The notes below the pieces were generated by a model. It was not told the origin of the DNA, ran no database searches, and saw only the letters and a list, made by a program, of their open reading frames with translations. A DNA stretch of 63,577 nt, counting the filler, from Sphacelaria rigidula (Eukaryota), in assembly GCA_964200075.2 (NCBI GenBank). It is 5 parts of 5 records of this genome, joined end to end, with 100 filler letters (N's around TTAATTAATTAA, not from the genome) between each part and the next. Parts side by side here need not be neighbours in the genome. Positions count along the whole stretch, not along the records: positions 25,476 to 38,110 come from CAXNAA020003548.1; 4 more parts are not named here. One strand, written 5' to 3'. Shown in pieces: positions 12,640 through 50,944 of the stretch (the first letter of the stretch is position 1; every line of letters begins with the position of its first letter). A program made the position numbers and the translations under genes.

Positions 12640-12739
12640 NNNNNNNNNNNNNNNNNNNNNNNNNNNNNNNNNNNNNNNNNNNNTTAATTAATTAANNNNN
12701 NNNNNNNNNNNNNNNNNNNNNNNNNNNNNNNNNNNNNNN
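12640..12739. other. Artificial scaffold linker (N-TTAATTAATTAA-N); also at ~25375-25475, 38111-38210 and 50845-50944
   Basis: The identical 12-mer, with stops in all six frames, is centred in ~100-nt N runs four times. Confidence 0.97.
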
Positions 12740-21084: not shown

Positions 21085-21380
21085 TTGTTTTTTTTGTCAC
21101 ACTTTGAACCCCCCCCTTTCCTCGCGGTCCGTGGTCTCAAGGGATCAACTCGTCTCTCCCCGGTACACGCCTTGCTTTTTGGTATCGCGGATTGGGTCAG
21201 CACTCCCGCACAGCGTCAACTCCCACAAAAAAAAAACAGTCGGATACTTGTTTACTCACGTACTCACGGTTTCGACGGTGGAAATCGGGTACTACGAAGG
21301 AAAAACCCAAAGCATTGGGAATCGAACCCACGTTCTCTCCACCCCAATGGTGACAGTCGGCCCACAAGACCGCTAGGGGG
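21085..21380 (-). mobile_element. tRNA-derived SINE, second copy
   Basis: Minus-strand head with B-box ggttcgattccc and the same ~90-bp core as 36041-36138. Confidence 0.65.
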
Positions 21381-24658: not shown

Positions 24659-25704
24659 CCGCTGTTCGCTCCGGCTTCGTTGTTGGCGCAAGGAAGTGTT
24701 GCATCTGGTTAGTGTCACGCTGTTTATCAGCCCTTGAAAAAAGCGGAACACAGTGGAGTCGAAGGACTTGATTACGAGGCTATCCCATGTTCTGGTTTCC
24801 AGCTAGATATAATTTAAGTACAAAGTGAAAGATCTTCCAAGAATTTTAACTCAATTCTACGCACCACAACGCACACAACGGTGATGGATACACTTATTGT
24901 ATCACACCTGACACAGCACATGCGCTTCTTGTACAAAGATCGTAGTCATTTTCCATCGCAACCCTGTCGTACAGATGTCCCTGCCTCGTGTTGCAGTATT
25001 ACCAACGCCGTCAAAACGGAACACGATGGGTCCAACAAACTCGATCAAGCACTTGGTATAACTATACAACAGTAAAACTATATCAACATGCATGGCCACC
25101 TTCTTTAAGAACTGTATTTCAACTATACCCACCACAGAGCACAACCAGACGATGCCGGATGGGTATAGGATATTTGATATTTGCGAACGGCACCTGGTAT
25201 AACAAATATAACAAATAGATCTGGATAGATACACTTTTTATGCGCTGACAGGATTGTCATGTTCCATATTAGGATATGAAACACGGTCAGCCAAGGGGCC
25301 CTACAGACTGGAAAACGGTTTATACCCTCCCCCCCCCCCCCGGGGGGGGTGGTCGAGAATGAGGAAAATCGAAAANNNNNNNNNNNNNNNNNNNNNNNNN
25401 NNNNNNNNNNNNNNNNNNNTTAATTAATTAANNNNNNNNNNNNNNNNNNNNNNNNNNNNNNNNNNNNNNNNNNNNGTTGGGAGCTCTCTACCACGACTCA
25501 TACTGCTTGCTACATCAGATACACACCACCTAATAATGCGCACCCTGCACCTGAAAACAGGTTGGGTGAAATTTTCGGTCTTCGTCATAATCCTGCGGTT
25601 ACATACGCGGATTTTCAGCAACACGCCACTGTTTCGTGCAGACGCCAGACACGTCATTCCTGACCAGCCTCATCGGTCGTTCTGCAGGCCCGGTCCCAAA
25701 AGGG

Positions 25705-26763
25705 TTAAGGGCAATGTACTGATCCCTGAAAACTGATTTTTGCCCTTAACTCATGAAAAAAAACCTTTGTGTGCACTGGTTTTTGTTTTTATTATGCCCT
25801 AATTCATTGTCCAAACCAAATATCAGGGTCCGACCCTAAGAATTGGCCGGTTAATGGGCCGTCTAGTGACGGGGTCAGAAGAAATTCGGAACAGTATTTT
25901 GCAGGCCACTTACCGGCCCACGTTTGGTTGTTGTGTATTGAAACGTTATGTGGACCGTGGCTTGGGCATAATTCACGAAACAAAGTGGGTCATGTTGGTT
26001 TTTATCCTTTTTTTTCACTGGTTTAGGGCGTTTTAGTATGGTAACGATCATTTTTTTATGAGAACGCTCGAACCTTCCCCCCCCAGAAAAAAAAAACATG
26101 AAGTGAAGGCCCATTTTTTTGTTCTTGAGCATACCTCTGTGGTTCTCCATGCTGAGTTTCAAATCACAATTCTAAGAATTGAGCGGAATAATTGAGATTA
26201 TGCCCAAGAGCAGTGTTCATTTCTCCTCAAAACTGCCCCAAAAACCCGAAAAGAAGTAAAACGAAAAAAATGAAGAAGCTGTTTTTTCAGCTTGATTATG
26301 CACTAGCAGTTCTCCGTACGAAATTTCATAGCATAACTCTCAAAACCTGAGACACGATATCCAGATTTAGTTCATGTAGTGCCTCTGCTCGTAATGTACT
26401 GATTTTAGTATGGAAACTTATGGGCGCCATATCTCGAGATGGATAACGAATTAGGTGAAGGTGAGGGTATCTATCGTTTCGCCGTGCTCCAGGGAATGTC
26501 CGCACCAAAAATCGTTGTCATCCGCGTAATGCATCGATCGGGGTTTCACAGAGATTTTAGTATTGACGCTATCTCCGTTAGGTATAGGAATTACTACACA
26601 TGGGCTTGAATCAACGACAAAATATTGGCCCAGACTTTTGAGCAGATAGGCATCTACTCTTTGTTTGAACGACTAATACAAAATGCGGATCATGACCCGA
26701 CTCGTCTGTGTCGATGAGGTTTTGCTTTGAGAGCTTTAATCCGTTTCTAGGCTGGCCCAGCTC
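25705..26763. mobile_element. Partial inverted copy of the 49834-50697 family, cut at a TTAA
   Basis: Ends in ctaggctggcccagctc and shares gcccttaactcatgaaaa and gaaattcggaacagtattttgcaggccac with the reverse complement of 49834-50550. Confidence 0.65.
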
Positions 26764-28942
26764 GTGGCCGAGGCACGCCGTGGTTCGTAGTCTGGGACGA
26801 GAAAAATAAGAAACCGTGAAGTGAAAACCCCACTCAAATCACAAGTACTCGAGGCGATTTACGGCGTGCATCATCAGGGGATGAGCAAGATCTACGATCT
26901 CTTCGTGTTTTTGGTCGGTGACACTTGGTTTGCCCATTTTTGGGGGTCAGACGCACCCATAACTGTATGATGCATCCGGATTTAAAGCACCCAACGCAAC
27001 AATCAGCGCTCGAATCGCACACGTTGCCGACGAGATCCGGGCGGGAAAAATCGGCCCCTCAATGGATGACCCCGAGCAACGCGCCGTTCCCAATAAATGC
27101 AAGTGGAGAATAAGCACAGACAGAAGGGGCTCGGGGGGAATCCTCGGAGATGCCTGAGTCGTAGTAACTTTGTTTCGGTGCGTGCTTGTGTTCAAGTGTA
27201 ATGCACTCCCACATACTATATCAAGAAAAGCGCCGCCGCTCGTGTACACAGCCGCACGAAGAACCCCACGTGAAAAACATGGCGTGTACAGGAACAGACA
27301 ACATCATGGTGATTGAATGATTCTCTCTTCCTGTGTTGATCATGTCGGTACCGCTGTCTTCGCCGATCCGTCTCTACAGCCTCCGTCCGCTGCAACTTAA
27401 GCTTGTACTTTGAGAATACATAGACAAGTGTCACTCACCCTGGGGTCGGTCATTTATGCCCTATCGGCACACGTTTCACTTAAAAAATGAATGCGAAACC
27501 CAGATGACCCACCCTGGGGTCGAAGGGCTTAACTTTAGAGCCGGTTCCAGGAAGAGGTGGCCCTCTCCGGAGTTTTTGACTTGAAAAATATATGTAAGAC
27601 GCAGATTACCCACCGTGGCGGTCAATAATTATTTTTTAAGCTGGCGGGAGGAAGGAGTGATGCCTTCCAAACGAGTGATACGATACTTGCAGTGTTGTTC
27701 CTTTTCAATAATATGGAGGCGGTAGTTTTGGACATAGGGCGCCCCAACACAGCACACGTGGTGTGTGATGATGCTGAAGCTTGACGCATGTGTGGCTAGA
27801 AGCCGCAGGTGGGTGTTGATGCAGCAGTTTCGGCGATCGAAGGCGTTTGAAGCGCAGCCTGGCTTCAACCGATGATTTCGCACGATGCTGAAGCGATTCC
27901 GAAAACTACAACACTTCGTATTGACACCTTTACCGGGTAACGATATGAAATCCGTGCGGAGCTAAGGGTGGATTTTGCCAGCCTTGTTGTTTACGCCGCT
28001 CCCCTGGCGCTCGAGGCTAGCACCAAGATAGGAAATAGCCAACAGTTTTTGTTGTCCATGTGTTGGAGGCAGATGGCGCTGGGTTTTATGCGCCATTTCG
28101 AGCAACACGCGGCCACGCAGCGTAGCCAAAGAGGAGAGCGTGTTCAAGCAAAGGGCACTGCGAACCTGCTCGGGCAGCGGGTAACATGTCCTTCCTTGCA
28201 GTGCCAGACTTGGCGTGGGCGTCATCACGGCGGAGTGAGAAGGACAAGAATGGCTGCTGTAGTGTCGGCCGGAATCAACCGGATATTCTGCGGTGACATG
28301 CTCCCCCACGAAAATCTTGACATTTCCCTGACAGGCGCGTCAACGGCGTTTTGCGGACATCATCTCATTTTCATTCGCTCGTAGTATGCAACTTCCGCAA
28401 CGTGGACAACAAACTGTCGCGACAGGTATACTGAACAAAATATTGCATCTCGTGTTGCGACCACACTTTCCATACTGTATACAGTATACTTGTTCAGTGC
28501 AAGTCCAGGGGGAGCCATATTGCGAAATACCGCTTTGACAGAAAGGCAGCGTGGGTACAGTGTAATGCAGATCTGGCGACAGTAATGGGCATCCCTACTC
28601 CCGGTGTAGTCACTGCAACACTGTGGGCGTGTCTTCCATAGTCAGGGTAGTCCTGACGGACATCTACCGCTTTGAGTTAGCGTTAATTATTGAAGCCTGT
28701 CGCGGCACTACCGTGACACAGCACTACAGTGCAGTAGACTGGGACAGGAAATTTGAAGTGAGGCCGGCGCACGAGTTTTGTGGCCGCTTATCCCCGCGGC
28801 GCTGGTATACGGAGAACAGTAGTATCCTTGATACCATCTGATGAAAAACATTCCAGGCCAGGTACAGACGGTATTTCCGTGTGCACTTCGATATCGCCTT
28901 GCATCGCAGCATGAACACCCCGAAGCGAGTGACCGGCGACAA

Positions 28943-29022
28943 GGGGGGGGGGGAGCGTACTCATCCATTACTTGCCTTAGTCGTTTGACCATTGACCACG
29001 CATCTCTTCCGAGACGGAGCAA
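28943..29022 (-). mobile_element. ~70-nt LINE-3'-end retroposon copy, oligo(C) tail, with TSD
   Basis: Same body and 5' boundary; G11 run on the plus strand; TSD accggcgacaa at 28932-28942 and 29023-29033. Confidence 0.8.
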
Positions 29023-32000
29023 ACCGGCGACAAAGGGGGGAGGGTTACCGGGGCCTCTCGAATTATCATGACCGTCAATGCTAGGGACCCAGTACTTGTG
29101 GCGATCGGCGTTTTGATGGGTGTTTGTCGACTGGTTGGGGTGTGGATGGCTCGTAAAGAACGGCCCATGTGCCCAAATTAGTGTCCAGACTCGATCGGGC
29201 AGTGTCAACCGTCGCCGATGGGCATGGAACTGCATGAAACTCCCTCCGACCAGAAGATTTGGTAGCCTGCGCTGCCCTCCGGAGTCGCATTACGGCTCCT
29301 CACCACAGCCCAACCACCCAGTACTGCCGCACCGACCGTATCTTCCGATAAGTAATTGTGGGTAAAGAACTCAATCTTCGTCGTTGTGCACGTGATCAGT
29401 TGGCGGTATCAGGCCCTGCACGTCACCGCAGCCTACACATCGTGAAGCGCGACAGAGGGTTTTGATACCCCGCTGTCCCTGGCGCCCATCTCCCGATCGC
29501 TCCGCACCATGGAAATGTACCGAAACAATTTAGTGCATCGCACCGCTCGGTTACTCATACTACCCGGAATACGTGTTTCAGTACAGCACCGCGCCAACAA
29601 TATTAACCACGTCACGGCATGCCGGCGCCATTGCACAACATCAAAAGCCTCGCCTCTATCCGCGCCCGCCTCCGCACACACGCCGTCGCACCGTACTGCC
29701 CGTAGCTCTGCACGCTCCAACACGAATTGGCCTTGTCTCTCGTCGCAATTTCCACCACCATACGACCCGACAAGTGATCTCTCATCACGTTTGACACTCG
29801 GATAGCGATACATCCAGCACTGCCATCGAGCACACTCCCCGCTGGATCCCGAAGCTGGGGTTTACGCGGCAGTATCGCCGGGCGACCGATCACAATATAT
29901 CGTAAGTTTCTCGGTCCCCTCCGTACGGTCGCATTTCCTCGCTTGAACCGTCGCCTCCTGCCATCCTACGGCGCCCCCTCGTCCCATGGCCAAGGGGTAG
30001 AACGTAATAGGTGCCCGAGGTGAAAGCCGGTACCAGTCCCGGTAACGCGCGCATGAGAGGGGTATGGTGTCTTCAATCCCGGCGATGAGTTCAGCATGAA
30101 GTTGCGTTGTTAGGTTCAACGTTATGTACTGTGCGGAATTGTTGTAACTATTTCCGTCTGCCGCGATTTTCACTCATTTGTGCGCGTGCCTCCCATCGTC
30201 GCAGAGCAGGTTTCATCAGAGCTTCGGGTTGGGAGAGATATCATGCATACGCTGCACGTTCCGATATAAGAATCATCACTTGAGTTAATATCAAACGACT
30301 CATGGGCTGAATTGACGGGGGGTGTCATCGATCTTTTGACGCCCGAAACACATCTCGTTTCGCCGGTAGCGAAATGAAAGGAGGGGAAACGGTAAAGAAG
30401 GATTGTGAAAGCATTCCCGACATCAATCTGAATGGGTTCACGCCCCCCTCATGAGACATCCAGGAGGCAGTGTGGTACCCGTCTGTGTATGTGAAAGTGG
30501 CGAGACCAGGAAATGAAGCACCACCTTGCTCTTTGTCATTTGCAAAATGCTTCATACGCTTCCGCGCCATCACAGCTTCGGGAATGCGGCTCGCTCTTCA
30601 CGCGAGTCTTTAAACGCCTTTTCACGGCCCGCGCTTGGCGCTTCATCGCGACTGTGGTCCAGGGAAAATCCGGCATGTACCGTCGCCGCTTAGCGGCCAT
30701 CCTAGGTCAATGATGCCATCCCTACGGCATCAAAGGTCGTGGGTACACCTTCTATGCAGAGCTCGCTTGGGCAAATTACGTACTCATGCCCTTTCCTCGT
30801 TTCCGTCGCGAACGATTCTAACCCCTTTTTCTTTCCTGCAATTGATTTTCTTTCCATATTTTCTTCTGTATACTTTATCGGGATATTTCAGATGTTTGTT
30901 TTTACCTCACAGCGATGAGCGCGAGGGAAGCTCGTGCTCTTCTGTATCTTAACATTTCTCTCCCTTCTTTCATTTGATGACCGTGTGTTTTTTTCTTTGT
31001 TCTTGGGGAGTCTGTGAATAAACATTGGAATTCCATCTCTCGTGAGGAATGACCGGGACATGATTGGAGATACCAGCATATGTCTGTGACCGCTGGTTCG
31101 AGATACGTCGCTAATTCGCGGAAATAATAATTGTAGTGATAACGATACAAAAAATATGACTAGTATCAATCATATTAACAATAGACAACAATAATAGCAT
31201 GATGATAACGGATGCTTCCTCAGCATCCGGATGTCCTATGGTCGACAGGCATTCCAAGAAGCGGGTGCTGCACAGAACACAACCCTCAAATACTTCAAAC
31301 CGAGTGATACGGACTCGGCGCCTCGTTTATCAGGCGATGTTCTGTGCCGCCTCTCGTCCAACACATGTTTATTCCACTCTAGCGCAGTGCATATGTTGTT
31401 AAAATTAGACACCGCCGGATGCTCACCACGTCGGGTCATGTCACTGCAAGTGGGTGCTCTCATCCGCTTAGAAGTCCCCGGGCTCCGGCGAGCTCATCAT
31501 CCGACTCCTCGCTGTCCGCCGCGCTACTCTCTGGTAACACCGACGACGTGGTGAACAAAATGGGAGCAAACGTCAGCTGGCGTTGAAGCCCATGTCAGTG
31601 GCCACCGACGGTGTCCTCGTTGTCCCCTCGAAAACTGGAGAAGCCCAACTCTCTCTCAACGAAACAGTTGTAACGCCTGGCACATCTACCAGGCATACGG
31701 GGGGCATGCGCCACGCCTCCGTGGATCTCGGGCGATGTGACTCGCGAGCAACAGCGCCGACCCGCCTTTCTCATCAAGACATGCCCAAGAAACACCACGA
31801 GTTTCCCAGTAGCGATCACAACCTCGTCCTCATCGCGCACATCACGCATAATTTCCACGTCATCGCACTAGTTTCAACGCCGTCTTTGGCGCCCGCCCGC
31901 ATATAATGCACCTCGCCGCCGTCCACTGATCCTTCCGCTTCTCCGTCCTCTGGAGGAATAGAAACAATCGAGGTCGGAACATGAGCATCCGTGGCTTGGC

Positions 32001-34359
32001 ACCCAACATGCACAAGTGCCGTCTGTGCCGCTGCGCCCGTGGCTGATTCCTGTCCCAATTTTCCGCCGCAGTGGCGACCGCCTCGTCATTGTCGAAATGC
32101 CGAAATGGGGGTTCGGGGCCTGGTGTGATCGGCGGCCGCCAGAGGCGCGCCCAGCACAAGAAATCGCCGGAGTGCACGGGACTACCGGGCCGCACCGGAC
32201 AGGGCGTCGTCCACGCCTCTGTCGAACCACACGCTGCCTTTCCTCATGGTGACAGCGACACACGTTTCCGTTTTCCCGGGGTATTCACGTTGGCCTGTCC
32301 AGCACGCGCTTCGTCCCTTGAGGTGGGTCGTGTCGGCCGTTTCGCCCCCAAGATGAACCCCGCAAGTATTCCGGAGACGGCTACTGTCGGCGACTGCGTT
32401 GGTGTGTGCCGCACGCCAACGATGGTAGACGCCGGTGGTTAGCGATGGCACACCCGTCGCTGGTGCTATCCGGCGACGGTTCATCGCCGGATGCGGCATC
32501 ATGATGAGACCGTGCCAACTCGGGCGAACGCCTGATCGTGGCGTCTCCGCTCTCATCCGCCGTCGTACAGCCGGGTTCGGCTCCCGGTTTGCACGCGGAC
32601 TGAACTGCTCTTGCCAGTGGAGCTGGCGGCTACTCTTCGCCGACGCGCACTCGTCCTCCGGCCCGATCGTTCCCATCTGCGCCCGATGGTATGCACGGCG
32701 ATAACATAAGCAGTATGAGTGATATCCGGGTCAAGAGGCGAATCGTGATTGTCGCAGCGACCATATGTCAAGCTTCTATGCCTAAGTTACGACCTCTCAA
32801 CCCTGGGTCACAGCAAAAACTGTGGCATATCCGGTACAAAATAGTCCGTACATCATACACCAGGAAAGGTGCCCGGCTGCAATTGTTTGTACTGCACGGG
32901 GCTCGTTGTGCGATCTACGCTTTTAGTCCGGCCCACCTTGTCTCTGCGCCACACCCGCGCAATGCTGGCAGTTGAACCGAAAGCGATCGACGACATCGTA
33001 CATCGAATCCCGACTCAAACGTTTCTTTTGGTGATTTCATCAAATACTACTGTTCGCACCCGCTCTTGAGTGCTGAAATGCGTGCATGTTGAGAAGGAAG
33101 GAGCTCGGTCGCAGGACAGAAACGTTGACCTTCATCAGTTGGGATGATCCCGTTCATATACCTTCTTCATGGGGGGGGGGGGGGGGGGGATGGGTCTCGA
33201 GTTTAAAAAAAGAACAGATTTCAGCGGGGGGGGGTCAGCGTGGAGTGAGAAAGGNNNNNNNNNNGCAAAAATCACGGTGTTTTTGTTTTTTTGGGGGTTG
33301 TGCCTCTCTTCTTTTCTTGTGGGGGGGGGGGGGGGGGGGGGGATAGTCATCCGGATTTGAAAAAATCACAGATTTTCAGCTGCAGAGGTGACCCTGAGTG
33401 ACACAAGGGCCCGGTCATCGCTCACGGAAACCTCATTACCCTGCACGATGATATGGTCGTGCATGTTCACCTAATTATACCTATTCGAGTGCAAGTCGCT
33501 GATGCCACAATCATCGCCCGTGCGACGGCGGAACGGCGTCCTAATCTCGTTGGAGAGCATTCGACAACATCTGGCGTGCATCGCTACATGTGGGATGCCG
33601 TACGGCACATGCCATTAGTACGTAATAATACAGTACGAAATAAGGGCCGTCACTACAGCACAGGCCATGCTACAACTTGGGCCGCAGGGTTTGCTTTACC
33701 TTATGATCAGTCATAAAAGTACTCCCGCACATGCTCCGGGGGGTGTTATCTTCATCCCATATGCACACACCAACACTTTACCACTACAGGCAGTAGTATA
33801 CTTACTGTAGTAATGTCAGAGTGCAGTCATGCGCCACATCAGAGAGTGGCGTGGACTTCGCGCCGTCTTCACTGCCCCACAATTACGCACGGGATATCAC
33901 TACTGTATTGTGGGCATACATGACTTTAGCATGGTGTCATGTGCCATGGCATGGTACAGCTCGCCGCACCTTGGCGAACACACTGCTCTCTCTGTGTACG
34001 CGCCTACTCGTCTCTACATCACGACACACCTTGTACAGACATTACACAGCACATACAGGCAGACCACTGCCGATGAAATCAAGGACTTGTCGTGGCTATC
34101 TGTGGGCCTATATATATCGTACAAGAAATGCTATCCGTCTCCGCAGCGACATATCTGCTTTCCCACCCTGCCGAGATATGTGCGGCGACTGGTCTGTTGC
34201 ATCAATTATCCGTGCTGATGTGGAGAACTCTCGTCCAAGGACATCTGCCCCTCTAGTTTCAGCATATTTTGGGCCTTGGAGCATGACCTTCTCCAACTGA
34301 CGCCGCGGATGATGAACTATAATTTAGTAAAACGCTCCACATTATTGAAAAGAAACAAG

Positions 34360-34830
34360 TCTGCTTGGTAATATCCATAGAGAAAGGAAAGGAATGCAGC
34401 AGGGGGCACAGAGAAGGCAACACTATACTGTACTGCGTTGCACTGTACTGCATTGTACTGTGCTGTGCGGTGTACTGAGACTTTGTTCATCTGTAAAGAA
34501 GATAGCCACCGTCCGGATGGATCATTTGTGTTTCATGGGCGTAGTATTTACTTCGAAAGTGAATGCAAGATCCAGATGGCCCGCCGTGGGAGTCCAAGCA
34601 TTTATTGTTGCAATTGGCGGCATGAAATTGTGACTCTCTTGAAGAGTTTGGTGTAATGTGATCCTTGGTGATATCCATAGACAAAGGGAACAGACGCAGC
34701 GGGGTGAGAGATAAGATAACACCGCTAAACAGCACTGTACTACTGTATTGTGCGTTTTCACTCGGCTTTGTGTCGACTTGATTTGTCACCCCGTGGGTGG
34801 GTCATTTGTGTTTCGTTGGCATAGTTTTGA
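34360..34830. repeat. Diverged direct duplication, period ~300 bp
   Basis: cttggt(a/g)atatccataga(g/c)aaagg at ~34364 and ~34664; tcatttgtgtttc at ~34522 and ~34802. Confidence 0.6.
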
Positions 34831-35849
34831 CGTGAAGAAGAATGATGAATAACAGTGCTGGCTATGCAGTGCAGCGGGGGGGTGGGCGTGTCATGGGTGC
34901 AGAAGGCCTTCTGCGCTTCTTTCCCGACTGACCGATGGACTTGCGCGATATATCCATCAGGAATGTTCGTTACACGCTTTGAAAAAAAAGAGTCTATGTT
35001 TTGAGCCCGATCATTATCTCAAACAATCACGGGGGCGCTCGCACGAAAAACGCACAGCAGTCAGGATATTTTCCCCAATGAATGTGCTGCGTGCTTAAGC
35101 TTGCGTCATCCGTGGGCGTGGGGGAAACCTGAAAGGAATCACTACCGCGTTGTCAGCTCGCCGCAGCAAGCTACACTTGGACATATTCTGCGCTCGTCTT
35201 CAGCTCATACTCCTTTGAATATCTGACAGCAGATACCCTACAGCAGTACAGTACAGCGCAGCTACCGTACACTGCAGTCGTATGATCCCGACATGTCCGC
35301 TTCGCACATTACATGTGCCCCACCTGAGGTTCTCTGTTCCTCAAGCCACTTAGCATAAGCAGCTCACGCCACCTTCCGGCACCCTGCGTTCCGAAACGAT
35401 GCTGGAGTTCGATGCTGGCTATTTAGCGGTCAGACCTTCCGTCATTTTATTTTCACGTATCACAACTGCGACCCCAGAGCATTCCCTACGCCACTTTCAC
35501 GAAATCCTGTGCTTTGTAGCCATACCCCGTGGAAAACGGACGCGTGGACCACAGCGGTCCAAGTTTCTGTAGACTCCACAGTACTGCATGGTCCCTGTCC
35601 GGACGGCCCGCCAACAACCCCTGTCTGCGATGTCGATGTCTTGCGGCGTCGACAGTGTTTGAAGCACTGGGGCGTTTCTTCGGCAGATCACGGCAGGGGC
35701 GACTGATGTGAGCACAGCTGCATGCTATCATGCCGCCTGGCTGGTACCGTACGGCGGATACAGAAGCAGTCACAATCCCCCTGTCAGGGCACACCGTCAT
35801 CACACCCAGTATCGAGCACCCTTATTACCCCCACAGAAGTTGCCGCTAC

Positions 35850-36175
35850 GCCCCGATAGTCTAATGGTATAATTGACATCATTAGTGGGGGGGAACGCGG
35901 GTTCGAGTAGATGCGTCTAGCTCGGCGTTCTTGCTCACAAGTGTCTGACTTCCGTCACTAAAAGCGTGAGGACGAGCTTGGAAAAAACTCTGTCTACCTG
36001 CACTTGTCGGACCATTCCACGCATTATAGGGATGGTGATCGAATCCGCGATACCAAAGTGTAAGGCGTGTACTGGTGGAGAGATCGGTTGATCCCTTGAG
36101 ACCACGGACTAGTCCCGAGGAAGAGAGGGGGGTTAGAAGCGGGAGCAAAAGAAGAAAATGGGGTGTTTTGTAGCC
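35850..36175 (+). mobile_element. tRNA-derived SINE
   Basis: A-box-like tagtctaatgg (~35857) and B-box-like ggttcgagt (~35900). The 3' body (aatccgcgataccaaa...aaggcgtgtac...gttgatcccttgagaccacggac) is shared with 21085-21380. Confidence 0.65.
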
Positions 36176-36843
36176 AAAGCGCATGGTGATACGCTAGCCA
36201 CGTGATGAAGCTGCGTATGTACTCACCTCTGGCTCATCTCTCACCCAATGTGCGCCTTTGGCGCCAAAACGTATTGCTCATGTATACTACCACTCATGTG
36301 AACTGACGGTCCCGCCTGTGTGATCCCCCACGCGAGACGCAGAAAGGAGAACGACCGTTGGCGCGTTTTGTGGTGAACTCATACTGGGAGAGAAACTATA
36401 CGAACGACGTCGGCACTACAGTTGTCTTTGCACCTCCAGAGTTCCACAGCCTGTCATTTGTTTAGTCGTCCCCCCGTACTGCAATTACAGCTGCGGCACT
36501 GCGCTAGTCTTGCAGAGAAGACGTCGTTTCCCCTTTTAGCAGCCACGCTGCAGTAGCTACTCTTGTCACCTGCTGAAACGACGGTCGGGTTGACAGTGCA
36601 ATCAACTACGAGTGTTTTTTTCGACCATTATGCTATGATGACGCTTCCTCTTTTGCTTGGACACGACCCACCGTAATCGTTCCTGGTTGATTTGTGCAGG
36701 CTTCCGCTGAATACGATGAGGTGATTCCCGTGCACGGGTCTGCAGCGGTGCGATGTAGCAGCACCAGCAGCAACTGCGGCGGAGGCGGCGCTGGGACACC
36801 CGGGTCCTGATTCACGTTTCTAGTGTATTACAGTCGAGAAGGC

Positions 36844-38110
36844 ATGCCTATTGGATGCACTCGCTCGAGTTGCACCACGAAGGCGTCATATGCTGTAGTG
36901 GGCAGCCGCAAGGCGAAGTTTTGCGCTACTCATGCCCTGACTGGCATGGTTAATGTACTGAGAAAACTTTGCGGCGAACAACCATCGTTTGGTGAAGCCG
37001 GTGGCAGGAAGGCAGAGTTTTGCGCTACACACGCCCAGGCGGGCATGGCTCATGTAAAACGTTCGCGGTGCGGCAAGGAGGGCTGCTCCAAACACCCATC
37101 TTTCGGTGAAGCCGGTGGGAGGCAGGCGGAATTCTGCGCTACTCATGCCCTGACTGGCATGGTCAATGTAGAAAGCAAGCGGTGCGGCAAGGAGGGCTGC
37201 TCCAAATACCCATCGTTCGGCTCAGTCGATGGCAGGAAGGCGGAGTTCTGCGCTACACACGCCCAGGCGGGCATGATTGGTGTAAGAAGGAGGCGGTGCG
37301 GCAAGGAGGGCTGCTCTAAACACCCATCTTTTGGTGTAGCTGGTGGCAGGAAGGTGGAATTCTGCGCTACACACGCCCAGGCGGGCATGGCTCATGTAAA
37401 ACGTTCGCGGTGCGGCAAGGAGGGCTGCTCCACATACGCATCATATGGTGCAGCCGGTGGCAGGCAGGCGTTATTCTGCGCTACTCATGCCCCGACTGGC
37501 ATGGTCAATGTAGTAAGCAAGCGGTGCGGCAAGGAGGGCTGCTCCAAATACCCATCGTTTGGCTCAGCCGGTGGCAGGAAGGCGGAGTTCTGCGCTACAC
37601 ACGCCCAGGCGGGCATGGTTGGTGTAAGAAGGAGGCGGTGCGGCAAGGAGGGCTGCTCCACACACGCATCGTACGGTGAAGTCGGTGGCAGAAAGGCGGA
37701 GTTCTGCTCTACACACGCCCAGGCGGGCATGATTGGTGTAAGAAGGAGGCGGTGCGGCAAGGAGGGCTGCTCTAAACACCCATCTTTCGGTGCAGCCGGT
37801 GGCAGGAAGGTGGAATTCTGCGCTACACACGCCCAGGCGGGCATGGTTGGTGTAAGAAGCAGGCGGTGCGGCAAGGAGGGCTGCTCCACACACGCATCGT
37901 ATGGTAAAGTCGGTGGCAGGAAGGCGGAATTCTGCGCTACTCATGCCCCGACTGGCATGGTCAATGTAGTAAGCAAGCGGTGCAGCAAGGAGGGCTGCTC
38001 CAAATACCCATCGTTTGGCTCAGCCGGTGGCAGGAAGGCGGAGTTCTGCGCTACACACGCCCAGGCGGGCATGGTTGGTGTAAGAAGGAGGCGGTGCGGC
38101 AAGGAGGGCT
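36844..38110 (+). CDS. EsV-1-7 cysteine/histidine repeat protein (at least 11 tandem 38-aa repeats), 3'-truncated by an assembly gap
   Basis: Uninterrupted ORF made of 114-bp units encoding C-x4-C...(P/A)S(F/Y)G...FCxTHA..GM..V, the signature of the EsV-1-7 repeat family of brown algae and phaeoviruses. ATG at 36844; the ORF runs into Ns at 38111. Confidence 0.9.
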
Positions 38111-41100
38111 NNNNNNNNNNNNNNNNNNNNNNNNNNNNNNNNNNNNNNNNNNNNTTAATTAATTAANNNNNNNNNNNNNNNNNNNNNNNNNNNNNNNNNN
38201 NNNNNNNNNNATTCACTCGAGGGTGGATACCATATAACATATTGTGCAGTGCAGGCATCTTGCGCGCATTACAGGTTTGAGAAACCTGTGTGTGGTTCAG
38301 GCCCCATGACTGCAGATTAATTAACCTCGTTGACTTAGGTAGGTCCCGCATTCAACCGAAGGTGGGAAACATATACCAGCGCTCACGTCGAACTTGTCGC
38401 ACATGGCGTGCATGTACAAGCCATTCACGCCTTGAGTCACGAAGAAGGGTAGACTGCGTGAATTATATCACGCCTTGAGTCATGAAGAAGGGTTGACTGC
38501 GTGAAATACAACTGATGTACGAACCGCATGATTTATTCATTAAGATGATGACTTGGAGTTGACTCACGAGTTGATTTGTCTTAACCGTGAAACCTTGAAC
38601 CTTGTACGGAGTGGTATGAGAATCTATATATCTACCGCATGTACTGCTCAGTGTACTGTAGTACGGCTGTGTATTATATCGTGAATCTACGTTTAAAATC
38701 GGACAACACACCCCATCGCTTGTGGCCTTGTGCGAAGGATAGCGTTTCTGCGATCCCTGGTGGCTTGTTGGCGCTGTTGCTGTCGTTGACCAGTACTGGG
38801 CAAAGAATCTTGATGCCGACCCATGAGAGACATACGCTCCGCACGTACACTCTCTCGGGCAAGAGGTGTACACGTAGACGATCGATCGCCCATGGAGTGC
38901 CGGGAGTCACGACGACGAGGACCACCGAGGGCGATGAGTTCTGATCCACCAGTGGAGGCAACCGGAGCGGTGGCGAAGAACGATCTCTGCCCCCGGCGAG
39001 GACGGCCAGACGGAGTACCACGTGATCGGGGTATTTCGCGGTTATTTCCATTTGAATTTTGCGCCATCGTCGAGACAGCAATAAGGACGAGAAGTACTCG
39101 TGCGATATGTGACATACTCAGCACGACTGTGGGTGTGCGTTGAGCCCAGTGCAAGGGGTAGACCGATGGGTATACCCACCGTTTATCTTGTCGGATAAAT
39201 ACAGATTCGAAAGCTTTCTCGAATTTTGAAAAAGAGGTTCGAGGGAGTATACGAAATGCATGTAGCGTAACCCCTGGGACGATAGGTCACAATTTCTGGA
39301 CGCACAGGAAACGGTAACAAAAACACACGTGTGGATGTATTCGTGATATGCCAGACGTTCATTTTGCTTCCGTTTTGACAGATATGTACTATTCCAAAGT
39401 TTTTTTGTGTGTGTCACGTCTCTCCGACCCACCGTCCGTGCAGCGCCGGGTACAGCCGCATTAGCAGCCATGGGTCGAACTCAACCCAGGGAGGACGAAA
39501 TGACCTGAAACTTCGTGCGGATCCTTATGCTACCTATAGACGCGCGATGATATGGTTTCTAGCGTGAGAGACACTTGATTTGAAAAAGTGGAAGGGTTTG
39601 GCCCGTGGAATGACGAGGGATCACCACAACCACCACCACCACCACCATTCTTTATTTTCCACACGGATACCTCTCAGGTGCCCCCGAGAGAATACGTGAG
39701 TGCGCTTGCTCAACAGCACGCGGCATGATCTTGGGATCGGAAACGTCTTGGGAGCGCAACTCCCGATACCGGACCAATACCAGGCCACTCAAGCAGCAAC
39801 AAAACATATCAAGTTTATTCTCCTTACTTCGACGATCACGGTAGTAAGGGATGATGAACAGCCTTCTCTCTCACAGTTCCCTTACAGAATCCCCTCACAA
39901 GGAAAAAGGACGTGACATAAGTCTGAGGCCCCAGGGTGTGTGGAGAGGGAAGATCGATAGACGCTCAAGTGTCAATTCCTACTGCAAGCTTGTGACCTGG
40001 TATTCTTCCATCAGCGACGTTCCAAAACACCCACACTTCTACCAGAAAGGTGTGCACATTTTGCTGAATGCATGAAACGTAATATCAACTTCGCAGCAAT
40101 GATCATGACTACGTGAGTACAGGGAAAACTTGGAGCTAACCAAAAGTACGAAAGGGTGTGGTGTAGTGGCCCAACCAGACCGAGCGCCATGTGCAAAGCC
40201 CGAAACCCCGTGCAATGCATCAGCATCCATTTCGTCACATCCACAACTCGATCATCAGTAACGAGTTACTCCAATAAAAAAAGGTCGCGATGATAAACTC
40301 GTGTGAAGGGCCCCGAGCTGATGCGGGTAATTTTGCTTCTGCAACGACCACAGTCGACAGAGGGCATGCTCTTGAACAAAAAAGAGGCATGGCGGAGCGA
40401 TGGAGTTGGGGGAGCAGCAGAATTGCGGGAAAATACATGGCAATATACGTATGCGTGCAAACACGCCAACAAATCACAATAAAAAATACGTCATTCAAAA
40501 TTACGACGGAAGATAGAACGAATTGACGACAAATCAGGTCTGTGTTACGCAGTGCAACTAATCCCGCCCCATCCTCCGGTACTTCCTTCCCCCAACTAGA
40601 GGAGTCGCGATCGTGCGCAATCAAACGAAGGAGAGATTCTCCGCCGTTTTTTTCTCGATTAATTGATACAACTGTTTCCCACCCCCGTTATCTTGCCATC
40701 TACTTCCATTGCGTTCAAAAAATACCACGGACAGGTCGCAGCCGCGCGCCCCCTCTACGCCCCTTTTACACAGAGACAAAACAAGTTTCTGCTCTTGCTT
40801 TCAGATATAATGGGGACAGGGAGGGGGAGGGGGGGAAGAAAAAAAGAGAACAAACAGACAAGGAACCGCCGTAAGTAGACATACAAATAAAACAAACAAA
40901 AATATGCGTCATCACCAAATATTCAACTCCCACCGAATACCCTCCCGACCCAAAGCCCCAACCTCCACCACTCAGTGCTCCTGTGTCCCAAAAAGCAAAC
41001 TCATCATCAAACGTCGGTTACTGTATGCCCATCACATTTGGGCTCCCGACCAAGCATCCTCCCCGCCCCCTCCCCGAAACGACGGGGAAACGACCGGGCC

Positions 41101-41179
41101 CNNNNNNNNNNCCCCCCCCCCCCCCCCCCCCCCCCCCGCGTCCCCCAAAAACACACCCCAACCCCCCCACCCCTCCCCT

Positions 41180-45500: not shown

Positions 45501-47012
45501 AAACAAAAGGCGTAATATTGTATCGGGCAAAAGCACTCCACGATCGCCGCGGATAGGTGGGCTCACCGCTTGAGACCACGGATTCGTGCCGAGGAAGCGG
45601 AACGGGAGTTTCACCAAATATGACAGAAGGAAACACAAATCGTCGCGATACTGCTCTCGCAGGGGTGTGCAATCTTGTTCTGAAAGGCGGCATGGGTATG
45701 GGGGTACCGTAGTGAGCGGTCTAACTTTTCATTTCGGGGCGATTTGTGATTTTTTTTTCGTTCTTGTCGATTTTCTTGGGCTCTTTTTGCTTGCCACCGC
45801 TCATCACGAAGGTATCTGAAGACATTTGTATCCGCTCCACATCTCAAAAAAAAAGGTACTCAATACTGAGTGACTTACGGGCTGACCGGTCAGTGGGGGT
45901 CCTACCGATTTTTTAGCCCAGATTCTTCCTCTTCGGTATTTTCGATCGATCGAGTCTATCCCGATCATTGTTGTGAAGGAATGTACAGTTTTATTTTTTT
46001 GAAATTATATCTACTCATTGCACTTGAGCCGGAAAACTGCGTTTCACGGTCGATCACACCCTCCTGTTAAACGGGGTACTTACTCGTATCGCCCGATAAC
46101 ACCAACTGACACTGAATCGGGCAATATGTTTCGAGAATGATATGTTCGCTGTACGAAAATCTACCGACGCTAGCAATTTCTACAACACCCCTGATTAGTT
46201 AGACCGCTCACTACTATACATGCCATGCCAGAGTAGAATCTTGAAAAATTCAACCATGCGAAACCATTAACCCTTTTGGAACACATTGACGGTTCTAGTT
46301 TTCGTGAATCGTCATCAATTTCACTCATTTTGACTTCAAAATGGTGCCGAATCACAAACACAGAATTCGTCAACCGGTTCCCAAAGGGTTGAGCCCGCTC
46401 AAAGGAATCCTTCCACGTGCTAACCTGACCGCGACCGCGACAGCGGGACGGCTGTATATTTGTGGCATGTGAAGGAGAAAAAGCCCTCCCTGGACACATG
46501 AAGGTATCGGTCTCGCACATCTGGCAACCCCGAGGAAAATTCCAGCAGGGCGAAAACACCATGCTCCCACGGAAGACTTGCTACCGCGTGTCCGGGTTCG
46601 TGGAATCTTTCGTGGGACACGCACAAGTTGAAGAGGCACCGAGAGGATGAATCTCCGTCACCTTGGGGACCACCATACAGCGCAGCTCTTGGTTGTGGGG
46701 AATGATAAATCTTGGACGTTATCAAGGGGACCATTTGGGGAACTCAAGTAACGTTCAAAACGTGTTATCTACTTCTCTGCACTAGCACACGAGAAGTGGG
46801 CGGCCTCCGTGTTCTGTGAACAGGATCGAACACTCATCCAGCACCCTGTACATCAAAGGGGAAAAGAGGGGCACCGAGGGGGAGGGGAGGCGAGGGGAGG
46901 CGAGGGGGGGCGTACTCACCGGAGCGTGGTGTTGCAGCTCGGGTATCCACTTTAGCTTCACGTTATGGAAGCTTGTCGGGTCTACCACGCTAAAACAGAC
47001 CAGAAAAACGTC
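42520..47012 (-). CDS. RAC: Rac/Rho-family small GTPase, last three exons (N-terminal exons not found in this window)
   Basis: Three phase-0 exons with GT-AG borders: 47012-46920 ([31 protein letters not shown]), 44992-44810 ([16 protein letters not shown]...[16 protein letters not shown], with G4 TKLD, the Rho insert and G5 SAL), 42609-42520 ([29 protein letters not shown], polybasic tail plus CAAX). Confidence 0.93.
42671..43110. repeat. Tandem duplication, 2 x ~220 bp, in the last Rac intron
   Basis: aaatggcaaaaactatggggtggcgcgg...gacctcacacgaagtaccaggcttgaaatgtg at ~42671 and ~42890. Confidence 0.85.
46271..46388. mobile_element. 118-bp piggyBac-like MITE in a Rac intron
   Basis: TTAA|cccttttggaac ... 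gttcccaaaggg|TTGA. A similar terminus (ggtcccaaaaggg|TTAA) ends at 25704. Confidence 0.6.
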
Positions 47013-49833
47013 CTGCGGGGGAAAAAAAAGGGGGGGGGGGGGGAAGAAAAAAGAAAACGGGAGGGGGGGGAGGGCGGTTTAGTGATGTTTGTCCCGGTTG
47101 CCANNNNNNNNNNCGCAAGGCGCCAAAAAGCAAAGAGAGCGGAGGGAGAGGGAGAGGGGAGGGGGAATGGGGGGGGGGGGGGGGAATAGAACAGAAAACG
47201 GGACGGGGTGGAGCGCGTTTTAGTGAAGTTTGTACCGTTTCACATGTGCTGTAATCATATGGCTCTCCACCGTGCTCAACTCTCCGTGTGCCCGTAGTTC
47301 GTTTTCTGCATCGATGGCTAGATTGCAAGGTTGTGTTCGGTAGGGTATTTGCACCCGGGAGCGGGGTATTCCTGGCTGGTATACTAAATCATTCCGGTGT
47401 GGTCTGGCAGAGTATCGGGTCTTGCTCCGAACCAGTATGTTTCGGGAGAATCTTCACCGATAATCACCTCTTTCGTGTCAAGACAGGTTCGTCATCAATT
47501 GGTCCACGCATCGCGAGACGGGGATTTTTCACAACCAACCACATTCCTCTTCCTGCGTTGTGTCAGCAAAACCTCAAAAACGTGGCGCCGAAACGGAGCA
47601 AAAGCCATCCCCTGCACTACTGTAGCTTTGCTATTTGTCGAGCACAGTTTGTGTGAAGGATGCGGGCGCCCGTCCCGGAACAAAATGGAGAAAAAAAAAA
47701 AATGGAATTTTGTCATCTAGCTTCTACTCGGTGCCCTCATCATCACTCCGGTGCTGGCACATCAAGACCACACAACTGCTCTGCTCCGAAAAAATTGCGT
47801 CCGTCTCTCAAGATAAGAAGTATGTTCCATCCTTTCGTCGTAACGAGGGAACAGAACATCCTTCTCATCTCGGGAGGCGCAGCTGCTGTTCATAAAACAG
47901 AGCAGATTGTCGGCCTCGAGCGGTAGCGCCAGCTCTGAGTGACGAGCACTACTGAACTGTGCAAAATGATTCCGGGGGCAAGACTTCGAACCTGAAAAAA
48001 AAAGTGTGTTTATGCTGCTGGTGCCATTTCCACTATTTCGTCTGGTAGTTTAGTCACCGGTATCGGAACCGTTTTTGATGTGTAGACAATACTGTTGCAT
48101 GCACCAAGTCCCCTCGTCCAAGGGTTCTCGGTCTGCCGAGGCAAACGGGGGTTGGCGGAACTGTTTGTACTGCTTGCAAGTAGGGTGTCTTGAGTGCGGA
48201 TGTGCGCGCTTCGTGCTGGAGAAGATNNNNNNNNNNGTGCAGACAGCCCAAGACAATCAATTCTCTCTGCTCACAAAGCGAATGAAAATAACTTCAGCAA
48301 CGTGCAGCTTTGTGCTGCCTGCATCGTCCATGAGCGTGCACGCAACTCGGTTGCCCATCGTACCGCACGCAGTTCCATACCTGGTGACTACCGTGAGACA
48401 AGATGCGCAAGTTTTCGCCAACAAAAGATAAACAAAGCACTACCCAACTACTTTCGTGTATCAATCCCTGTGCTCAACTCGTGCTCTATGCTGCAGGGTT
48501 GCGGTGGTAGCTGAATATGAGTTGGATGGAGTTTGCAGTTTGCATGGTCCTGTGAACGGGTGTTCTTTGGCGTGGTGGTCTGTAAGACAATAGTCAAGTG
48601 CCGCTTCGTGTCTTTCGACTGCATGTTTTCGATCGACAAAAAAAACTTTCTTCACTCGTTGCATTCTTCTCCGCGCGCCGCTATTTTAAATTTTGAGTTG
48701 AAGCCTTCGAGGAACATGAATGCGGTGGACCTATCAGATAGGGAGAAAAACTTCGATCGCACTTTATCGGTAAAAAAAAAGTGATAGGACACGCCCCGAC
48801 CCACATTGGCGGCGGGCAGAGGATGTCAACCTTGAACCGTTTGACCGCGAGGGTAGGTCACCTGCAAAACCGGCACTTCGCTTGAAAAAAATATGTGCGA
48901 TCCAGACGGACTACACGTACCCGCATCGGGGTCCAAGGGTTGACCCTCATATCGGGAAGGTCGTCCATCTGAATCATGCACACTTTTTTCGAGAGAATTT
49001 GGTGCCGATTCGGTAGATGACCTACTCTCGCCGTGTAAGGATGAAACAAAGAGGGTGGGCAATCTAGATCGCAGATTCATTTTTCAAGTAAAAATGATGC
49101 CGATTCGACACATTACTTACCTTGGTACACCCTCAGACCGTGAGGGTAAGTCACCTGCCGAATCGCCATCGATTTCCACTTGAAAAAGTATGCATGGTCC
49201 AGATGGACTACCCGCATCGCAGTCTCGGGGTTAAAGAGTTGATGCCCCTTGTACCGCGAAGGTGCGCCTACCGAGGTCCCGAGACATTTTCCAAGTGATG
49301 ACGCTAATTCAACCAGTATAGTTCACCACTTCGTAGGTGACGAAAATTTCCGACTGGGCTTTGGTGTGAAAACGGGAGCCCGGATCTTCAATCAGGCTGT
49401 GCTCCTGTCGTACGCAGAACGCGTTTCGTCTCAATCGACGCCGATTTGCGGTTTACACCCCCCTCGCCCGAACGTTTTCGATATACCTTGGTTGGGGTGA
49501 GGGTTAGGGATACAGTGGGGATTCGAGTAAATCTAAATCATGAAATTCCGAAAAAGTTCCATTACCGACCAATTCAAAATATAACCCATCTCGGCGGCAA
49601 AAAAATTCGTCCGTTCAACCGCCAGCATAAGTCATCCATTCACTCGGCATCACTTTCACCTGGAAATATTGTACATGGCGCAGATCACTTACCCTGGCGG
49701 CCACAGGATCCCTGTAGACCACGAAGGTAGTTCATCTGGATTATTAATAATCTTTCCCGCTACGAAGTAATGCTGATGAAACAGATGCCCTACTCTCGCT
49801 CTTTTCTCTCCCCGTTGAACTCGGGGGAGCTAC

Positions 49834-50844: not shown

Positions 50845-50944
50845 NNNNNNNNNNNNNNNNNNNNNNNNNNNNNNNNNNNNNNNNNNNNTTAATTAATTAA
50901 NNNNNNNNNNNNNNNNNNNNNNNNNNNNNNNNNNNNNNNNNNNN

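Follow-up and report, generated by a model that had tools for sequence, protein, structure and literature searches.

An EsV-1-7 array of Sphacelaria rigidula: unit differences probably due to descent and reshuffling of a few older types

EsV-1-7 takes its name from a gene of a phaeovirus, and IMM (Ectocarpus IMMEDIATE UPRIGHT) is, to our knowledge, the sole member of the EsV-1-7 family for which there is a genetic phenotype. Two further systems are useful as points of reference, these being the repeats of TALE proteins and the C2H2 arrays of PRDM9. Both consist of tandem units which are near-identical outside of two to three codons. With tandem arrays, in addition, a homogeneous interior in combination with a diverged edge unit is the classic signature of unequal crossing-over.

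As described in the excerpted text of three sources (10.1101/2024.02.19.579948, 10.64898/2026.04.27.720984, PMC12993054), EsV-1-7 is massively expanded in brown algae, i.e., to 95-335 genes per genome. These genes are found there in tandem clusters, have giant-virus affinities, and display stage-specific expression. The family, which includes the developmental regulator IMM, is described by the same excerpts as a possible new class of zinc finger. An excerpt of a further source reports an Ectocarpus Tc1/mariner transposase with an acquired N-terminal EsV-1-7 domain (PMC12477816). A ligand for the family is not given in the excerpted EsV-1-7 literature, just as an earlier, sequence-only reading of the present locus had stated. 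Nor do the excerpts on EsV-1-7 and on IMMEDIATE UPRIGHT either propose or test a per-unit recognition code, which is what that reading suggested might exist here.

The window, i.e., the whole of the Sphacelaria rigidula DNA that was analysed, is 63,577 nucleotides long, filler included. It is made up of five pieces of about 12.6 kb along with four identical artificial joints (N44-TTAATTAATTAA-N44), these recurring at a spacing of about 12.7 kb. The EsV-1-7 array is located at the extreme end of the third piece (25476-38110), and as the pieces meet at these artificial linkers the array must be viewed as truncated. An open reading frame starts with an ATG at 36844 and stays open on the plus strand until the piece itself ends (38110), with 36844 being the earliest possible start since an in-frame TGA is present at 36808. 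The 422 codons of this frame are free of stops and frameshifts, while the other two plus-strand frames as well as the minus strand hold short open reading frames only. Encoded are 11 EsV-1-7 units plus five residues of a twelfth. The features of this coding portion, with units numbered from u0, are as follows:

36844..38110, plus strand: EsV-1-7 family protein, coding sequence incomplete (422 aa visible, 3' end absent)
36856..36969, plus strand: unit u0, a divergent edge unit (CTRSSC...FCATH), 58-69% nucleotide identity to the inner units
36970..37068, plus strand: unit u1, 33 aa, with a 15-nt deletion and its second Cys gone, three of four putative zinc ligands remaining
37069..38094, plus strand: units u2-u10, nine full 114-nt units, 77-99% nucleotide identity, with a higher-order pattern at lags 3, 4 and 7
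38095..38110, plus strand: the first 16 nt (5 complete codons) of unit u11, ended by the piece boundary
38111..38210, no strand: artificial joint N44-TTAATTAATTAA-N44, non-biological, separating two unrelated pieces

Identification of the array as EsV-1-7 is secure. The Pfam family PF19114 (EsV_1_7_cys) matches over 11 stretches with an E-value of 2.8e-157, i.e., 510.6 bits versus a cut-off of 25, and the ligand pattern C-x4-C-x16-C-x2-H is complete in 10 of the 11 full units, with u1 the exception. Those same positions are near-invariant across 468 units of the family. As described by Tandem Repeats Finder, the array has a period of 114 (9.9 copies, 82% matches) and, better, a period of 342 (87% matches). 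The encoded 422 aa are strongly basic, with a pI of 9.86 and a net charge of +48, or +1 to +6 per unit. The sequence-only reading thus was correct in describing a basic C-C-C-H array of EsV-1-7 repeats. EsV-1-7 units were not found elsewhere in the window, as searched by HMM and by regular expression in six frames, and the window gave no Rfam matches. As an observation in its own right, the sequence-only reading overlooked the artificial truncation, the loss of a Cys from u1, and the block linkage of variable sites that is considered below.

With this locus, a known and already much-discussed family gains a further member. Motif, spacing, and the 38-aa tandem period all are as seen with PF19114 generally, and neither the family nor the protein considered here has another Pfam domain. 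Absent from the protein is the IMM-specific N-terminal non-repeat domain, which is described, in the excerpted source, as unique to IMM. Among named relatives, the best matches are to proteins of Sphacelaria rigidula, whose identity is 59-66% in alignments covering 35-71% of the query. The closest of these sequences, each an 'unnamed protein product' (P0003, P0006, P0021, P0034, P0056, P0065), possess N-terminal arrays, as is the case here, and have in common with the query the unit type CGKEGCSK.PSFGAAGGRKAEFCATHA..GMV.V..KR. They differ, however, in possessing 4-8 units, often with some damaged, versus the at least 11 units of the query. They also share a C-terminal tail of about 200 aa, a region before which the query piece ends. 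Next in closeness are proteins of Ectocarpus, Scytosiphon, Pylaiella, and Ascophyllum, with green-algal and viral-metagenome proteins farther away, and an identical protein was not present among the near-length or longer proteins compared.

With at least 11 units, the query possesses the highest count among 121 proteins (P0001 plus 120 relatives; range 2-11). The amino-acid identity between its units is 0.757, close to the highest value among 67 family proteins (0.768) and well above their median (0.575). What is unusual about this array, i.e., its unit count and its homogeneity, is a matter of degree only.

Structure as predicted by AlphaFold2, using 101 homologues and modelled without metal, has a mean pLDDT of 84.1. 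With a pTM of 0.44, the arrangement of units relative to one another is not fixed by the model. Per unit the predicted pattern is of a strand spanning roughly positions 12-14, a bridge at 22, a one-turn helix at 24-26 within C23-x2-H26, and a strand at 31-33, with positions 35-38 serving as a short basic linker. Confidence is less for u1 (pLDDT of 62-76 across 10-residue blocks), and an 80-aa model of two units has a pLDDT of 75.3. When the 422-aa model was compared with the PDB by Foldseek, nothing reached E <= 1e-3, and the top-ranking entries, lectins along with various zinc modules, had E-values of 0.75-10. VIA-align, run wide with the two-unit model, returned nothing at Z >= 2, and PDB sequence and profile searches had 0 matches. 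These failed searches do not represent evidence of a new fold, as tiny, metal-held modules score poorly.

A candidate relationship considered in this context is with the CCCH zinc finger of Mcm10/primase (PF09329). The unit's latter half, G..K.EFC..H....M, is weakly like positions 23-42 of the 46 making up that profile, whose own first half is unmatched in the query. The score is 40.2 bits as summed over the repeats, though two units alone have a single-domain score of 18.2 bits, below the cut-off of 28.8, and the Mcm10 internal domain is seen by Foldseek only at E 9.8. The likeness consequently is a lead rather than membership.

Whether the gene is expressed can be considered in terms of sequencing reads. 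Nine runs cover part of the stretch, none of which is recorded as RNA, and four of these, X1, X4, X5, and X7, were compared over 34500-37300. X1 and X4 are DNA-like, with even depths of about 70-80 and 22-26, respectively, and one contig is unbroken over 36094-37050. X5 and X7, from one study, consist of about 80 million letters each and display very uneven cover, with their designation as RNA being a guess. The contigs of X5 and X7 begin their fit at 36698, directly 3' of the tract ...ttgatttgtgcag, with depths of 44.3 and 29.5. They carry 82 and 79 extra letters, respectively, which match nowhere on 34500-37300. Their cover is zero over 36192-36661, where X1 and X4 by contrast continue. The upstream features are these:

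36004..36191, no strand: dispersed repeat of high copy number, lying within the putative leader intron, summed depth of about 145,000-200,000 versus about 70-80 in its flanks (X1)
36687..36699, plus strand: putative 3' splice acceptor of an intron of the 5' leader, a pyrimidine-rich tract ending in CAG, as based on the sequence and on X5 and X7 contigs
36700..36843, plus strand: portion of the coding exon 5' of the start codon, untranslated, as based on the sequence and on X5 and X7 (depths 44.3 and 29.5)

The last of these contains two tiny upstream ATG-stop frames in addition to the in-frame TGA at 36808. Taken together, these features hint at transcription of the gene, with its 5' leader being spliced. 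The sequence-only reading had depended on a transcribed locus, and RNA-like contigs, run type guessed, do cover the gene start. Diverged copies of the dispersed repeat are found at 21089-21207 (80%) and 45551-45597, and inverted repeats around this high-copy element are not present in 35900-36300.

We view the locus as probably being the 5' part of a transcribed, host EsV-1-7 gene, with differences among its units arising by descent from, and reshuffling of, a small number of older unit types. The gene product by this explanation would consist of 11 or more modules of 38 residues in tandem, with C1, C6, C23, and H26 of each module as putative zinc ligands. Each module is predicted to comprise a knuckle along with a small sheet of three strands and, at C-x2-H, a helix of one turn, with basic linkers of four residues found between modules. 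Older N-half types would be KHPSF, KYPSF, and T-x-ASY, and older C-half types 'L/P-T..VNVxSKR', 'QA..xGVRRRR', and 'QA..AHVKRSR'. Such types would have been multiplied by duplication of multi-unit blocks and then subsequently recombined, whether by unequal crossing-over or instead by gene conversion. Purifying selection would act on the zinc scaffold, with loop and linker positions approximately neutral. The multivalent, highly basic array of zinc modules that results would act in a regulatory role, binding either nucleic acid or a protein partner. Bearing on function are the strongly basic composition, the reported EsV-1-7 domain of a transposase, the weak likeness to the Mcm10/primase zinc finger, and the role of IMM in development, and binding of nucleic acid by the array may be given an even chance or perhaps slightly better.

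One line of evidence for this explanation is linkage. The variable sites of the units are linked in blocks and are not independent choices. Six sites (unit nucleotides 75, 78, 85, 87, 96, and 103) share one pattern, marking u2, u5, and u9, i.e., those units with 'L/P-T ... VNVxSKR' C-halves, and three of these six are synonymous third positions. Similarly, a synonymous site in codon 7 co-occurs with A20V in u4 and u8, and a synonymous site in codon 13 co-occurs with Ser14 in u3, u6, and u10. K8T, P10A, and F12Y, in turn, are fully linked in u5, u7, and u9. Across the 468 units of other family members these same residues are nearly independent, with odds ratios of 2.0 for T8-A10, 1.0 for T8-Y12, and 0.63 for A10-Y12, so their linkage here is better viewed as a consequence of descent than of structural need. 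Counting against descent, however, is that this block consists of three non-synonymous changes which are not accompanied by a linked synonymous marker.

Reshuffling and duplication leave their own traces. The four-gamete test is failed by 76 of 171 informative site pairs, and six of the nine possible combinations of N-half with C-half types occur, implying that unit halves have recombined. Neighbouring units (lag 1) have a mean nucleotide identity of 0.825, whereas peaks are seen at lag 4 (0.911) and lag 7 (0.93), implying duplication of multi-unit blocks. The divergence of u0 (58-69%) also is as expected, since crossing-over homogenises an array's interior.

An alternative is that we are looking at a decaying or mis-assembled copy, with the order of units being an artefact of assembling a high-copy repeat, or with the gene being a pseudogene. 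The summed depth over 37132-37300 exceeds that of the flanks by more than 200-fold in X1 and by about 300-fold in X4, as spread over many short contigs which are at least 95% alike (1113 contigs in X1). As that depth so hugely exceeds the flanks, many near-identical units must exist elsewhere in the genome, and short-read contigs of X1, X4, X5, and X7 all break inside the array, at about 37050-37200. The u1 unit is without one Cys, and several of the Sphacelaria relatives contain damaged units. Nonetheless, 422 open codons lacking stop or frameshift, retention of all four ligands by 10 of the 11 units, a pN in the scaffold of 0.021, indicative of constraint, and the covering of the gene start by RNA-like contigs together make decay or mis-assembly an unlikely explanation. 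X4 differs from the window at 13 positions in the flanks along with one inserted letter, and at none within 36844-37050. Three apparent joints within the array (37025>37232, 37090>37230, and 37093>37232) with sides of 20-22 letters, as well as the portions that X5 and X7 leave uncovered, were set aside as repeat artefacts or as uninformative.

A further alternative to descent and reshuffling is the modular recognition code of the sequence-only reading. That is, positions 8-15 and 28-37 would enable every unit to recognise a portion of some target, whether DNA, RNA, or protein, with those positions under diversifying selection. The raw observations on which this idea was built are sound. Scaffold strings are present within the array as described: tgcggcaaggagggctgctc eight times, ttctgcgctac eight times (with ttttgcgctac twice more), and ggcatg 11 times, and within the window both tgcggcaaggagggctgctc and ttctgcgctac are confined to the array. 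The choices among KHPSF, KYPSF, THASY, and TYASY, which are the N-half forms found in the array, all appear in the aligned units. The series of residues following Gly, i.e., E,E,S,V,A,S,E,A,K,S, agrees with the alignment as well, as do the linkers in their four forms, VNVxSKR, IGVRRRR, VGVRxRR, and AHVKRSR. It is instead with what these observations mean that difficulties arise.

Codon counts all are based on the nine full inner units (u2-u10), aligned gap-free, in which 38 of the 114 nucleotide sites per unit are variable. By pooled, pairwise Nei-Gojobori comparison, pS is 0.205 and pN is 0.130, for a ratio of 0.63, with 29 of 36 pairs having a ratio of less than 1. Counting minimal changes per codon, there are at least 14 synonymous on 27 sites and at least 33 non-synonymous on 87 sites, giving an omega of 0.73 over the whole unit (binomial p of 0.31 versus neutrality). 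Overall omega, that is, lies in the range of 0.63-0.73, rather than above 1 as diversifying selection would have it. The sequence-only claim that most differences change the amino acid is right as a count, i.e., for 33 of 47 minimal changes, but as this 70% compares with the 76% that is expected from the codon table, it carries no signal.

What then can be said of constraint? The Cys/His scaffold is constrained while approximately half of positions vary, just as a code would have it, and with 23 scaffold codons having a pN of 0.021 versus a pS of 0.213, scaffold codons are under strong constraint. This, though, is constraint on protein, as synonymous divergence is about 0.2 in scaffold and variable codons alike. 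At the level of DNA, then, the units differ well beyond a handful of codons. The 15 codons flagged as amino-acid variable have a pN of 0.294 versus a pS of 0.193, for a ratio of about 1.5, and the 19 codons with a non-synonymous change have a post hoc ratio of 1.47, with nine short, recombining units affording little power. Both could be read as favouring a code, but these ratios of 1.47-1.5 are inflated because the codons were picked for being variable. In the four closest pairs of units (u3-u6, u6-u10, u5-u9, and u4-u8), differences total 19 that are non-synonymous and 5 that are synonymous, for an omega of about 1.2 as based on tiny counts. These results leave room for some diversifying selection at a subset of sites.

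Nor does the placement of changes single out particular positions to the degree that had been claimed. Non-synonymous changes are found in 19 of 38 codons, leaving 19 empty versus the 15.8 expected, so that in this array alone the clustering of variation at set positions is only marginally beyond chance (P 0.069). The largest load on a single codon is four changes, at codon 14, where a maximum of at least four has a probability of 0.35 at random, even though that position displays five residues among nine units. Furthermore, much the same positions vary between units throughout the family. Variability per position correlates with between-unit variability in 67 family proteins (Spearman 0.55, p 3.5e-4) as well as with family-wide entropy (rho 0.37, p 0.023), and variable positions accordingly are a property of the family.

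Comparison with the described coding arrays can now be made directly. As with TALE repeats and the C2H2 arrays of PRDM9, the query consists of similar-sized tandem units, with a conserved scaffold, some variable positions, and unequal crossing-over. In contrast to those arrays, non-synonymous changes are spread over half of the unit's codons, silent divergence is about 0.2, omega is not greater than 1, and a hypervariable di- or tri-residue is absent, with the maximum, at codon 14, being four changes. DNA outside of would-be specificity codons therefore is not near-identical in the query (pS 0.205). A TALE- or PRDM9-like code, with dN/dS not exceeding 1 and variation spread roughly evenly, is unsupported to the extent that one array can tell. 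Still to be credited to a code are the occurrence of six of nine half-unit combinations and a very basic protein. Against it, in addition, are the synonymous markers that are linked to the amino-acid 'choices' and a target that is not known. On balance we judge a per-unit recognition code to be improbable.

More doubtful still is the broader proposition that EsV-1-7 arrays represent a programmable, unit-by-unit system of nucleic-acid recognition, one belonging to brown algae and their giant viruses. Were this true, then the loop after the knuckle (8-15) along with post-helix and linker positions (28-37) would set specificity, and block duplication in combination with recombination within units would create new specificities, e.g., versus transposons or viral DNA. 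The EsV-1-7 domain of the Tc1/mariner transposase would be, in that case, a DNA-targeting module.

That the gene instead is that of an integrated phaeovirus or giant virus, i.e., an endogenous viral element rather than a host gene, is least probable, for while the motif's viral name as well as arrays on five viral contigs (single-protein scan) and in the viral-metagenome protein P0051 point in that direction, the viral matches are of 34-39% identity versus 59-66% for brown-algal proteins, a spliced leader is hinted at, a dispersed, host-type repeat is found just upstream, and Pfam matches, viral hallmark families included, are seen for 0 of 7 neighbouring ORFs of at least 130 aa in the piece, so that an integrated virus is not indicated.

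Descent and reshuffling of older unit types within a host gene thus is the explanation that we prefer. The statistics of one array are insufficient to establish a recognition code, in favour of which the locus provides no positive evidence. In brown algae few gene families are as large as EsV-1-7, for which the excerpted literature gives no biochemical function. A long, homogeneous array such as this one is a convenient construct for a first structure, for metal analysis, and for a binding screen of the domain. The locus serves as well to illustrate how such arrays evolve, that is, through block duplication and half-unit recombination about a constrained Cys/His scaffold.

Within the partial EsV-1-7 coding sequence at the end of the third piece (36844-38110, + strand), the nine inner, full-length units (37069-38094) share a stretch of essentially fixed DNA. 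That is, the knuckle CGKEGCS (codons 1-7), along with the last linker codon, is encoded by the same DNA in eight of the nine. Across the EsV-1-7 family, positions 2-4 and 7 rank with those that vary most, though here they are DNA-identical in those same eight units. Knuckle and last linker codon together may represent a preferred crossover or conversion tract. The absence of third-position changes from six codons is not significant (~0.08, a rough estimate).

From unit u1 (36970-37068) five residues are missing, the second Cys among them. Lacking that putative ligand, one module of the array probably cannot hold zinc in the usual way. Damaged units are found as well in several Sphacelaria relatives, where R, F or Y stands in place of a Cys.

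The window consists of five pieces of ~12.6 kb each, separated by N44-TTAATTAATTAA-N44 linkers, with genomic adjacency not implied for adjoining pieces. Because the pieces are joined in this manner, features which reach a joint, including the EsV-1-7 array, are cut artificially. Four runs of exactly 10 N, found instead within pieces, resemble scaffold gaps in the source assembly.

Artificial joints (linkers): 12640-12739; 25376-25475; 38111-38210; 50845-50944
Runs of exactly 10 N, inside pieces: 33255-33264; 41102-41111; 47104-47113; 48227-48236
Dispersed repeat, ~190 bp, a short way upstream of the EsV-1-7 gene: 36004-36191
Open frames with EamA-like transporter family matches, - strand: 21665-22252; 23852-24802

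In X1, a sequencing run behaving like genomic DNA, summed contig depth over the dispersed repeat is ~145,000-200,000 versus ~70 in its flanks, and the repeat is abundant in RNA-like runs as well. Diverged copies (~80%) occur in two other pieces (21089-21207 and 45551-45597). No terminal inverted repeats were found over 35900-36300, nor did an Rfam search of the window yield a match to this repeat. A short stretch at 34876-34969 reaches ~20-30 times flank depth in DNA-type runs (1482 versus ~85 in X1), and a second repeated element therefore lies there.

The two open frames, found in the second piece, probably belong as exons to a single gene of drug/metabolite-transporter type, with one family match above cut-off (E 7e-12) and the other below (E 0.003).

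EsV-1-7 arrays also occur fused to other domains. P0123, a predicted protein of 2055 aa (eukprot), combines such an array with UCH ubiquitin hydrolase, DUSP and MYND domains, and a Tc1/mariner transposase with fused EsV-1-7 is reported in PMC12477816. Such fusions could steer hypotheses on the partners of EsV-1-7 arrays.
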